Of a stretch of DNA of 64,000 nucleotides, positions 59,817-63,515 are shown piece after piece; the stretch's first letter is position 1, and each line of letters opens with the position of its first letter. The notes under the pieces were generated by a model. The model saw only the letters and a program-made list of their open reading frames with translations. It made no database searches and was not told the DNA's origin. The stretch is from a virus. The stretch is taken from IMG/VR virus record IMGVR_UViG_3300050821_006485, positions 37,203-101,202 of that record. One strand, written 5' to 3'. Made by a program: the position numbers and the translations under genes.

Positions 59817-59892
59817 TGGTGGGCCTGCTTGGACTCGAACCAAGAACCTACGGATTATGAGTCCGCTGCTCTGCCAATTGAGCTACAGGCCC
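59817..59892 (-). tRNA. tRNA with CAU anticodon, most likely tRNA-Ile2 (lysidine type)
   Basis: GGGCCTGTAGCTCAATTGGCAGAGCAGCGGACTCATAATCCGTAGGTTCTTGGTTCGAGTCCAAGCAGGCCCACCA; full cloverleaf, encoded CCA, ileX-like anticodon arm. Confidence 0.92.
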
Positions 59893-60691: not shown

Positions 60692-61195
60692 TTATATAAT
60701 CTCCTTCATTGTTCCTAAGGCCGCTTTACGCACCGCAATTGCTTCGGCTTTAGTTTTGAACAGTCCAAGATGTTTTCTTTTCCCAGGTTCTGGATAATAC
60801 CTAGCTCTCCACACACCTTCGGAAAACTCAGTAACTCCGTCGCCTTTAGCGCCCACTTTAACAGCGTGTCTACGGTTCCCTAATTGGCTTCTCCACTCTA
60901 AATTGTCAACAACGCAATTGGCTTTAATAGTGTCCTTATGATTGACTTCTGGCAAATTTAATGGGTTTGGTAAAAAAGCCCCAGCAACCAGTCTGTGCAA
61001 AGATACGGTTTTTCCTTGTAACTTTACACTTAAATACCCGGCCTTATCTGCTGTAGGAGTAAGCAGTCCTCCAGAAGAGCCTTGCCTTCTTTTACTCCAT
61101 ACTCTTCCTAAGCTACTGACCTCATAGTTTTCAAAACCAGCAACCGGTTTCCACAGTTCATTCTTTATTTTCTGTCTCAATTTCAGTTTGCTCAA
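60692..61195 (-). CDS. NUMOD4-HNH-AP2 homing endonuclease
   Basis: WKPVAGFENYEVSSLGRV, HRLVAGAFL..EVNHKD..NLEW, KRKHLGLFKTKAEA. Confidence 0.88.
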   Translation of the reverse strand: MSKLKLRQKIKNELWKPVAGFENYEVSSLGRVWSKRRQGSSGGLLTPTADKAGYLSVKLQGKTVSLHRLVAGAFLPNPLNLPEVNHKDTIKANCVVDNLEWRSQLGNRRHAVKVGAKGDGVTEFSEGVWRARYYPEPGKRKHLGLFKTKAEAIAVRKAALGTMKEII

Positions 61196-61874
61196 CTCTT
61201 TCCTCTTCTGTGTAATTATTTGGATCGCTTAAAAATTCCTGACAAATCATCTCCACACAAACACCGTCTGGGTAATCCTTGGCAGTTCCTTCACTATCCC
61301 TACCCGCGCTCCCTAAGCGCTTACGCGCTAGTTCAAAAGCTTTGCTGACCACATTATCCCACGCAGACTGCGTGACCTTATAAGCTCTTGATACCATCTT
61401 ATTTTCTTCCACTTGGTTTTTTAATCGGCTGACTTCTGCTTCTACTTCTGCGTACGACATACGCAACGCGGCCCGAGTAAGCCGTACAATATGCCTGTCT
61501 AACGGTTCTGATACTTTAGTATCTTCATTCCAAAATGCACCCTTCGGGTCTAAACTAGTTATTTCCCGGAGCTTACTTACGCCTACGGGTTCGTATTCTT
61601 CCCGTAACAACATAACTATACGATACACTTCTACTATCCTTGTTAAGTATTGTGCCTTCCTTTCTTTAATATCTAACTCCTTTACGGCGTAATCCCCGAG
61701 CGATTTAAAGCCCCATTCGCGGCAGTAGTCCTTCGCTTCGTAAAGCAGTTCAGCCAAGTCGAAGGTGTGCCGCTTGAGACTAGAGGCGAGGGTGCTCAGC
61801 GAATGCCGAACCAAGGCGGACCTACCCGCGACTGCTTCACCAACAATCGCGGGGACATTATCTGTTATTTCCAT
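61158..61874 (-). CDS. Hypothetical (possibly DNA-binding) protein
   Basis: ATG 61874 after GGAGG; WGFKSLGDYAVKELDIKERKAQYL helix-turn-helix-like. Confidence 0.65.
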   Translation of the reverse strand: MEITDNVPAIVGEAVAGRSALVRHSLSTLASSLKRHTFDLAELLYEAKDYCREWGFKSLGDYAVKELDIKERKAQYLTRIVEVYRIVMLLREEYEPVGVSKLREITSLDPKGAFWNEDTKVSEPLDRHIVRLTRAALRMSYAEVEAEVSRLKNQVEENKMVSRAYKVTQSAWDNVVSKAFELARKRLGSAGRDSEGTAKDYPDGVCVEMICQEFLSDPNNYTEEERVEQTEIETENKE

Positions 61875-61881
61875 GCGCCTC

Positions 61882-62216
61882 CTATGCGGCCTTCTTGGCT
61901 TTACTAACGATGTAACGTTTGGGAATGCCAAGCGCTTTCACAACAGCATCTTTCAACTTAACACGAAAACTAAAGGGCTTGACGTGTCGCAAGTCATCAA
62001 AGTTTTCTATAAACCTTGTTGCCGTTTTTTGGCAAATCAACTCGTGAATACTCGTAACCCTCTTCGGTTTCATATTCGAAGTCGATGGCATCGACCACAC
62101 TTACGCCGTGGAACCCCACTCTTGTAGCAGCCAAAGCTATGGGGCAAGTTTCACTTTTTGTTTGGCTCCCCGTTTTGTATGTCTTTGCTAGTGACTTTGA
62201 TTTCTATCGTTTTCAT
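61882..62216 (-). pseudogene. ~110-aa gene broken by two +1 frameshifts in A-runs
   Basis: AGGAG RBS then MKTIEIKVTSKDIQNGEPNK / SETCPIALAATR...DLPK / TATRFIENFDD..VKPFSF; extra A at 62155-62159 and 62025-62030. Confidence 0.6.
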
Positions 62217-62250: not shown

Positions 62251-62580
62251 GGTAGAGAGGCCTTGCGACCCCTCACCCTTCGACCGCTTTAGGCGGCCAT
62301 AGCTAGCTCGTTAGAGTTGGCTTGTTTTGTTTCGTGTCCTGATTACGCTGGCCACGACATCGCGGGATTGTCCACTGCTGTCTCATCGTCGCCGTCGAAT
62401 CCTTTCACGCCCGTCAAAGCCACCATTCAGTCGAGAATTATAGTTCACTACCCCTGCCGGGGGGTGCTATTCCGCGAGACCCGCTGAAAGGCTCTCGGTA
62501 TTCATCATGGTGGCTATGGTGGACGTGGCGGCATCGAAGCCGCGTCCGACAACCCGGATAACAGTTTCATACAACCATAA
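62251..62580 (-). ncRNA. ssrA: Circularly permuted (two-piece) tmRNA: acceptor piece ~62580-62517, intervening segment 62516-62413, coding piece 62412-~62251
   Basis: 5' end GGGCGTG-AAA-GGATTCGAC; 3' end GGAC-GCGGC-TTCGAT-GCCGC-CACGTCC-ACCA lies upstream of it; 7-bp acceptor stem with G3.U70; tag 62321-62289 ANSNELAMAA*. Confidence 0.9.
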
Positions 62581-62582
62581 CC

Positions 62583-63515
62583 CTAAATTTCCACTGGTGG
62601 TAACACTTCGCTGTCGTACTTACTTGATGATTCTTCCGCAACTGCTTCGTCTACTTCTTCCGCTTCTTGTTGCGCTTGCTTTTGACCATTACGTTGTGCC
62701 ATGTATTCCAGAAAAAGCGCTCCGAACTCCTGCTTATCTTTCTCCTGCATAAGAGCGAACTTCCGGCAAGCCATAACATACGGACCCCCTTTGGTTAACT
62801 GTGTTGAGTAAATTTCGAAGCTAAAGTCGAAGAGGTTGACAGATGGCAATGGCGGTAACTGCCCTCCGGGAGGCGGAACAAACCCCGGAGTAGCATTGAA
62901 TAACCCCGTGGTCTTGTCGAACGTGTACCCCCGTTCTTTGTTTCGTAGGCGTATGTTAGACGTTTCCTTTGCAATCAGACCGTATAAATCGCGCTCCATG
63001 TGGTCCTTGAACGGCTTTACGCTCTTTCCGCCCACGTCTAGGTAATGGAACGTCTGGCTCTCGCGGTCTGCCAGAAACAAATGGTAGAACATCTTGCACT
63101 TGGGCAGAAGATCATTCTTCTGAGAAGCCGGGCGTGGATCATTTCTCCACGCTTCCCACATTAGATCACCAAATTTACAGCTTGCACAATACAACGCGGG
63201 GGGATTCTTTGCCTTTGGGTGTGGCTGAATGTTGTCCAGCGAGAAGCACTCCTTGCCTTGTTTCACATTAGGGTCCCAAGGCGGCCAATAATCGCGCTGT
63301 GTTCTGACATCAAACAGCACAACTTTCAAGGAAGGAACCTGTTCACCAGTTGCGGTATTGCGAAACATCCCCGGCGTCCCCCCTTCTTTCGTCGTGGACT
63401 TCGCTACCAACTCCAAAACGGTAGGCCGGATGTTGCTAAACAGACTCCCGGCGAGTCCCAGGCCGCCCTTAGCGAGCGGTGCCTGGTTGTTCAATACAAC
63501 TAAGTCCTGTCCCAT
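62583..63515 (-). CDS. Putative ssDNA-binding / recombination-associated protein
   Basis: CFSLDNIQP...CASC..W...CK; acidic C-terminal tail. Confidence 0.5.
   Translation of the reverse strand: MGQDLVVLNNQAPLAKGGLGLAGSLFSNIRPTVLELVAKSTTKEGGTPGMFRNTATGEQVPSLKVVLFDVRTQRDYWPPWDPNVKQGKECFSLDNIQPHPKAKNPPALYCASCKFGDLMWEAWRNDPRPASQKNDLLPKCKMFYHLFLADRESQTFHYLDVGGKSVKPFKDHMERDLYGLIAKETSNIRLRNKERGYTFDKTTGLFNATPGFVPPPGGQLPPLPSVNLFDFSFEIYSTQLTKGGPYVMACRKFALMQEKDKQEFGALFLEYMAQRNGQKQAQQEAEEVDEAVAEESSSKYDSEVLPPVEI

Follow-up and report, generated by a model that had tools for sequence, protein, structure and literature searches.

The sequence analysed here, hereafter the window, comes from an IMG/VR virus record 101,202 bp long, of which it forms the right-hand 64 kb; the record is estimated to be 91% complete. 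Positions 62251-62580 of its minus strand hold a circularly permuted (two-piece) tmRNA gene, recognised from the sequence and from an Rfam covariance model (Table 1). The Infernal search with a permuted model that had been proposed in the first-pass annotation gave a match to RF04321 (tmRNA_permuted) above the cut-off, scoring 82.4 bits where the gathering score is 47, with an E-value of 3e-14 over the whole 64 kb window, or 4.7e-16 when the same gene was searched over 1 kb. The match runs end to end, from model positions 1 to 213 (62576-62289 on the minus strand of the window), with the codon GCC aligned to the resume codon of the model. The gene order is permuted, the 3' tRNA half lying upstream of the 5' half, as membership of RF04321 requires. 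In addition, the T arm, the acceptor stem of 7 bp, the terminal hairpin and the outer P2 helix all appear independently in the minimum free energy fold of the 341-nt precursor, together with a 9-bp helix that closes the intervening segment.

Table 1. Parts of the permuted tmRNA gene and neighbouring genes, in window coordinates unless another record is given
Feature	Position	Strand	Basis or remark
Whole permuted tmRNA gene (precursor span)	62251..62580	-	RF04321, beta_tmRNA alignment 62627-62251, fold
Acceptor piece: outer P2, P2b and P2a 3' strands, GAC, T arm, acceptor 3' strand, A73-CCA	62517..62576	-	Sequence and covariance model
Outer P2 strand GGUUG	62576-62572	-	Sequence; pairs with CAAUCC
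P2a 3' strand GUUGUCG	62553-62547	-	Sequence; pairs with CGGCGAC
GAC	62546-62544	-	Sequence
T arm, stem GCGGC/GCCGC (62543-62539 and 62532-62528)	62528..62543	-	Sequence and covariance model
T loop UUCGAU, 6 nt	62538-62533	-	Sequence
Acceptor 3' strand CACGUCC (U70)	62527-62521	-	Sequence
ACCA (A73, encoded CCA)	62520-62517	-	Sequence; predicted mature 3' end 62517
Intervening segment, 104 nt	62413..62516	-	Closed by 9-bp helix, 62515-62507 with 62426-62418 (fold)
Coding piece: acceptor 5' strand, GGAUUCGAC, P2 5' strands, PK1, tag frame, hairpin	62251..62412	-	Sequence, covariance model, fold
Acceptor 5' strand GGGCGUG	62412-62406	-	Predicted RNase P site before G1, 62412
GGAUUCGAC	62402-62394	-	Sequence
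P2a 5' strand CGGCGAC	62394-62388	-	Sequence
ACAG	62381-62378	-	Pairs with CUGU
CAAUCC	62370-62365	-	Pairs with GGUUG
Pseudoknot PK1: stem 1 CGC/GCG, stem 2 UCGUG/CACGA	62332..62364	-	Compensatory changes in relatives
Tag frame GCC AAC UCU AAC GAG CUA GCU AUG GCC GCC UAA (ANSNELAMAA-stop)	62289..62321	-	RF04321/RF01850 tag columns
Terminal hairpin after tag, 11 pairs, one bulge	62251..62277	-	-17.5 kcal/mol, z -2.35
tRNA-Met	59817-59892	-	
257-aa ORF	61158-61931	-	
Small ORF	62216-61997	-	
310-aa ORF	62583-63515	-	
GGQ gene	G000:C1:31363-31701 (locus L015:1483-1821)	+	Upstream of the window

The set of tRNA-Ala identity elements is complete (G3.U70, discriminator A73 and CCA end). The acceptor stem GGGCGTG/CACGTCC with G3.U70 described in the first-pass annotation is indeed read in the sequence, together with G1-C72, G2-C71 and A73-CCA, and the helix 2 strands that it had matched across the two pieces (CGGCGAC/GTTGTCG and ACAG/CTGT) pair as stated. 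This long helix joins the tRNA-like domain to the message part in the covariance model alignment, and an anticodon arm is absent. The two stems of PK1 lie just upstream of the resume codon, and the tag frame has an Ala resume codon, an Ala-Ala end and the stop codon UAA. The proposed tag ANSNELAMAA, with its Ala-Ala end, aligns to the tag columns of both RF04321 and RF01850, and the ends predicted at 62517 and 62412 agree with the anatomy of the sequence. In the fold, the closing helix of the intervening segment stacks beside the acceptor stem; no gene was found within this segment.

The gene escapes standard annotation. ARAGORN did not report it in its default, -ps and -ps90 modes, whereas the -ps80 mode found the permuted tRNA-like halves but miscalled the tag as ENDRNQSH, so that the ARAGORN check put forward in the first-pass annotation supported the halves and not the tag. 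The default miss is probably due to the T loop (UUCGAU), whose 6 nt are one base below the canonical 7. With blastn, the gene matched none of 50,697 phage records, and no sigma-70-type promoter or intrinsic terminator was predicted on its strand.

Genes for two RNA ligases, a primase-helicase, HNH endonucleases and a metallophosphoesterase surround the tmRNA, along with a tRNA-Met gene. That the locus belongs to a phage is confirmed by the origin of the contig (IMG/VR) and by the RNA ligase, primase-helicase and HNH genes near the site; with the RF04321 score, this bears out the original reading of the locus as a phage-borne permuted tmRNA. The record, at 91% completeness, contains no detectable integrase, and no SmpB was found in it. 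It does encode a 112-aa GGQ protein with a release-factor domain (PF00472, 45.7 bits) and an intact motif, which is ArfB-like, so that the tmRNA is accompanied in this phage by a rescue or hydrolase factor of protein nature. The two ORFs flanking the tmRNA, of 310 and 257 aa, matched no family in a Pfam search; the former has clustered Cys residues and ends in an acidic tail, in the style of an SSB, and both look more like replication or recombination proteins than like tmRNA partners. The tRNA-Met, 2.4 kb from the tmRNA, is the sole tRNA of the window; in the relatives L107, L111, L116, L117, L118 and L123, the tmRNA lies inside or beside clusters of 2-6 tRNA genes. Just downstream of the tmRNA, a small ORF starts with MKTIEIKVTSKDIQNGEPNKK followed by a stop and resumes in another frame as ..SETCPIALAATRVGFHGVSVVD.., across the A-rich run AAACAAAAAG. 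The frame break reflects either a sequencing error in a homopolymer or a site of frameshifting, and no homologue of the ORF was found in the related tmRNA loci.

The window phage belongs to a clade of soil-type phages of about 90-110 kb, for which a profile built from four primase-helicases brought up 80 viral contigs. A permuted tmRNA was found in 25 of the 50 records scanned and, above the cut-off, in 18 of the 20 relatives that are at least 90% complete; the gene is lacking in the two other near-complete relatives. Among members of the subclade whose primase identity is at least 52%, as well as in Tunturi_4, it lies 3-8.5 kb upstream of the primase-helicase and on the same strand. Homologues of the 310-aa ORF are present upstream of the tmRNA in six relatives, and homologues of the 257-aa ORF downstream of it in six relatives including Tunturi_4. 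The permuted tmRNA is therefore close to a core feature of the clade, with usually conserved synteny. The nearest cultured phages according to the primase-helicase are Tunturi_3 (44% identity) and Tunturi_4 (42%), from Arctic tundra soil, whose hosts are members of Tunturiibacter (Acidobacteriota) (PMC11924767). Both harbor an unannotated permuted tmRNA that exceeds the Rfam cut-off, scoring 63.3 bits in Tunturi_3 (PP885686.1, 88172-88396, minus strand) and 79.2 bits in Tunturi_4 (PP885687.1, 43532-43941, minus strand). These copies were found with the covariance model only, being too diverged for a DNA search. The paper describing the two phages, in which tRNAscan-SE was used and 'unknown' tRNAs are listed, never mentions a tmRNA (PMC11924767). 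In Tunturi_4, the tmRNA starts five bases past a gene with a GGQ release-factor domain; such a gene is present in 4 of 22 complete genomes, and its carriers include Tunturi_3 and two of the 20 complete relatives. SmpB was absent from all 22 complete relatives searched.

tmRNA genes are frequent targets of phage integration, and parts of them often end up in phage genomes (PMC9004378, PMC4131195); the gene could be a passenger, that is a recently captured host tmRNA gene or an attP fragment with no role for the phage. Such an origin is very improbable given that both halves are complete, that the 91%-complete genome has no detectable integrase, and that 18 of the 20 complete relatives have the gene, with conserved synteny and the compensatory evolution described below. 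Moreover, no near-identical bacterial gene was found in 185,579 species genomes, nor any near-identical permuted host tmRNA of the kind that the first-pass annotation had named as reducing the novelty of its claim. An attP remnant in particular was rejected, the gene being complete and an integrase not being found.

Comparison of the clade copies supports the proposed structure. We parsed 23 copies, which share the layout of the acceptor piece; acceptance required a fully paired acceptor stem starting with G and an NCCA end, so the presence of G1-C72, G2-C71, G3.U70 and ACCA in all 23 is a requirement of the parser and not independent evidence. That the acceptor and T stems pair at 100% likewise follows in part from the parser, but the diversity of pair types does not: acceptor pairs 4-6 each occur as all four Watson-Crick types without any mispair, and two to four types of pair are seen at each T-stem position. 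The P2a strands were taken by fixed anchors rather than by pairing, and this helix is 88% paired, against 56% when partners were shuffled among sequences, a value of 88% being reached in none of 2000 shuffles. Stem 2 of PK1 is compensated (UCGUG/CACGA in the window copy, ACGUG/CACGU in L120, AUGUG/CACAU in L133) and stem 1 shows a change from C-G to A-U in L120. Outer helix 2 also covaries, with GGUUG/CAAUCC in the window copy and GGAUG/CAUCC, GCACG/CGUGC or ACACG/CGUGU elsewhere. The intervening segment measures 11-219 nt across the clade, and its closing helices in L120 and L133 keep their pairing with sequences unrelated to that of the window copy. In the terminal hairpin of L120, the base of the stem is kept and the interior covaries.

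Related tags are kept as frames in the relatives (AETKPLAFAAAA, ..AKPLAMAAAAA, ANTNVLAMSAAAGA and ATEKPMVMAAAAGR). The shortest tag has 10 residues and the longest more than 30, and the tag ends differ between close relatives, being ..AAAGR in L120 and L121, ..AAAGA in L123, poly-Ala in L111 and L133, and ..AMAA in the window copy. These differences in end and length are what would be expected if the phage tag were tuned to a fate other than that of the host tag, giving rescue without degradation or a redirected degradation. We consider this improbable for the window copy, which ends in a classical Ala-Ala.

The T arm has a 5-bp stem and, according to both the sequence and the covariance model, a loop of 6 nt where the canonical loop has 7. 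The same loop size, with a compensated stem, occurs in the nearest relatives L120, L122 and L121, the loop of L124 being UGCGAA, and the variant is therefore not an assembly error. The stems of relatives read CCGGU/ACCGG, UCGGC/GCCGA and GCGGU/ACCGC. A 31-nt pattern of the T arm and acceptor end, taken from the window copy, matched 11 of 185,579 species genomes. The matches include the alpha-type tmRNA of four Mesorhizobium species, at about 260 bits, which in the one genome checked is the only permuted-tmRNA hit, and standard tmRNAs of a Desulfovibrio, Omnitrophota, a Parcubacteria member and a Neomarinimicrobiota MAG. By this sequence comparison, the 6-nt loop appears to be a rare variant, yet one compatible with a working tmRNA. 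Loop size is unusually variable across the clade (6, 7 and 8 nt), which could mean that the constraint is relaxed in some members.

The variable T loops, together with the absence of SmpB from the phage and its relatives, would also suit a decoy, an RNA that mainly titrates host SmpB (or AlaRS or EF-Tu) and shuts down host trans-translation, tagging being irrelevant. The model for such a role is that proposed for the RNA of mycobacteriophage DS6A, which consists of a tRNA-like domain only, and a molecule of this kind is reported to inhibit tmRNA (PMC4131195). A decoy, however, needs no message part, whereas PK1, the resume region, the Ala-Ala tag frame and the stop codon are kept and compensated in the relatives, and we regard it as an improbable explanation of the gene.

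The affiliation of the tmRNA was assessed with the lineage-specific Rfam models. The best one for the window copy is beta_tmRNA (RF01850), with 45.4 bits against a gathering score of 84. Neither the alpha model (RF01849, cut-off 50 bits), which is out-scored by beta within the clan, nor the cyano model (RF01851) reports it at gathering. All 20 clade copies compared pass the generic permuted model; beta is the best lineage model for 13 of them (35-75 bits, none reaching 84), alpha for four, of which three pass 50 bits (L109, L125 and L119), cyano for none, and a partial standard-tmRNA match is best in two. A best match to beta says little, because ordinary alpha-type tmRNAs also receive 40-72 bits from the beta model, as seen in a sample of 151 Pseudomonadota that included no true beta member. 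Betaproteobacterial descent, considered from these best matches, was dropped on account of this cross-scoring. A maximum likelihood tree built on the shared core from 39 sequences and 151 columns leaves 21 of its 34 inner branches without support. A partition of this tree grouping the window copy with alpha and other viral sequences was discarded as biased, those sequences having been fetched with the 31-nt pattern of the window copy itself.

One viral record (G018) carries an alpha-style tmRNA at L119:1501-1797, with the T loop GGCAGAA, the linker ACUCAG and 57.9 bits for the alpha model. This T loop and linker are in the style of the sampled alphaproteobacteria, so the alleles at the tmRNA locus of the clade are heterogeneous, which suggests replacement among phages or from bacteria.

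As a whole, the clade tmRNAs are a divergent group outside the curated lineage models. The first-pass annotation had envisaged an independent permutation; the position outside the alpha, beta and cyano models agrees with this, but a separate event has no positive support, and from the sequences at hand descent from a known lineage appears likewise unsupported.

For the form of the host tmRNA we relied on a published table from a 2025 database (PMC11915505). It lists 1589 standard, no alpha-permuted and five 'beta'-permuted tmRNAs in Acidobacteriota genomes, and 24,380 standard, 18 alpha-permuted and 23 'beta'-permuted ones in Bacteroidota genomes, so that either candidate host phylum uses one-piece tmRNA almost exclusively. 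Bacteroidota enter the comparison through a Bacteroidetes-labelled MAG (G058) that contains two contigs from a phage of the clade (C201 and C34; loci L025/L133 and L147). One bears a tmRNA very like the window copy, flanked by homologues of the phosphoesterase, HNH and virion genes, and the other a clade-type primase-helicase with 42% identity. These contigs are either a mis-binned related phage or a hint about the host. The tmRNA of this phage contig is the only look-alike in the 185,579 species genomes. The sporadic permuted entries in Acidobacteriota and Bacteroidota may well be such phage DNA, as seen for this one MAG, a case from which it follows that permuted tmRNAs of odd lineage in MAGs can flag mis-binned phage contigs.

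The first-pass annotation knew phage tmRNAs as one-piece molecules, which is contradicted by published two-piece ones: a 2021 survey counted 53 of them among 133 unique phage tmRNAs, 50 being from aquatic phages (PMC9004378), and the OM43 myophage Melnitz and related marine myophages carry one (Buchholz et al. 2022, PMC9004378). The kind is thus already known, and the window gene adds to it. It shares with Melnitz and the pelagimyophages the permuted order, a complete tRNA-like domain with a tag frame, a lytic-type phage without integrase, and a presumed role in maintaining or exploiting ribosome rescue. However, the Melnitz-type phages are marine and T4-like, and their tmRNA groups with alphaproteobacterial forms and is accompanied by a glutamine riboswitch, whereas the window phage lies in a soil-type clade of about 100 kb related to podo- and siphoviruses of Acidobacteriota, and its tmRNA falls short of the cut-off of every lineage-specific model, its T loop measures 6 nt, and it possesses only PK1 and one hairpin. 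No riboswitch was matched at the window tmRNA with the Rfam models.

Among bacterial forms, the beta family RF01850 resembles the window copy in the 5' leader AUGGUUGU, in a tag of the type AN..AMAA (consensus ANDEHFAMAA) and in the post-tag hairpin, all of which align; it differs in that four P2 pairs of the window copy are non-canonical and the intervening segment has 104 nt where about 25 are expected. The resemblance is generic, in view of the scores that the beta model gives to alpha-type tmRNAs. The alpha family RF01849 (Caulobacter type) has the same topology, and the four Mesorhizobium species have an identical 6-nt T arm and acceptor end, but the window copy lacks the GGCNGUA-type T loop of the sampled alpha genomes. 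The one-piece tmRNAs of the mycobacteriophage Bxz1 group and of Bacillus phage G are likewise carried by phages and need host factors; unlike the window gene, they have the standard order and four pseudoknots (PMC4131195). What is new here is a near-universal permuted tmRNA in a large phage group that includes two cultured phages of Acidobacteriota.

Taken together, it is likely that the gene encodes a functional two-piece tmRNA of a lytic-type phage, which would use host RNase P, AlaRS, SmpB and EF-Tu for ribosome recycling. Gene structure and conservation were computed, and we infer the processing, charging and tagging steps. The tmRNA would be transcribed within the replication-module transcript, and folding of the intervening segment into a helix would bring the two halves together. 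Host RNase P would then cut before G1 and host 3' processing would halt at the encoded CCA, giving an acceptor piece of about 60 nt and a coding piece of about 160 nt, which the 7-bp acceptor stem and some 16 bp of helix 2 are predicted to keep joined. The molecule could be charged by host AlaRS via G3.U70 and A73. Host SmpB, which is needed since the phage genome and its 22 relatives have none, would deliver it with EF-Tu to ribosomes that have stalled on mRNAs which are broken or lack a stop codon. Translation would resume at GCC, append (A)ANSNELAMAA and terminate, so that ribosomes are recycled and stub proteins marked for host proteases. The phage may thereby sustain translation capacity while host and phage mRNAs are being cut. 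This rescue role fits a genome with two RNA ligases, a phosphoesterase, a tRNA and an ArfB-like GGQ gene. If the host is an acidobacterium or a member of the Bacteroidota, the two-piece tmRNA would need to work with an SmpB that has co-evolved with a one-piece tmRNA.

A further, rather doubtful possibility is that the gene represents a phage-resident lineage distinct from the alpha, beta and cyano forms, long inherited as a near-core gene and working in hosts with one-piece tmRNA (Acidobacteriota, perhaps Bacteroidota). If this were true, permuted tmRNA genes would have their reservoir, and perhaps also their source, in phages, and this would account for the scattered 'permuted' tmRNAs that have been reported across many non-proteobacterial phyla. 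Because standard annotation misses such genes, as did default ARAGORN here and tRNAscan-SE in the Tunturi paper, current counts of phage tmRNAs are underestimates. Finally, Tunturi_3 and Tunturi_4 with their Tunturiibacter hosts are cultured pairs in which a two-piece tmRNA occurs in a phylum with one-piece tmRNA, and offer a laboratory system for asking why phages carry tmRNA and whether the two-piece form works with a heterologous SmpB.
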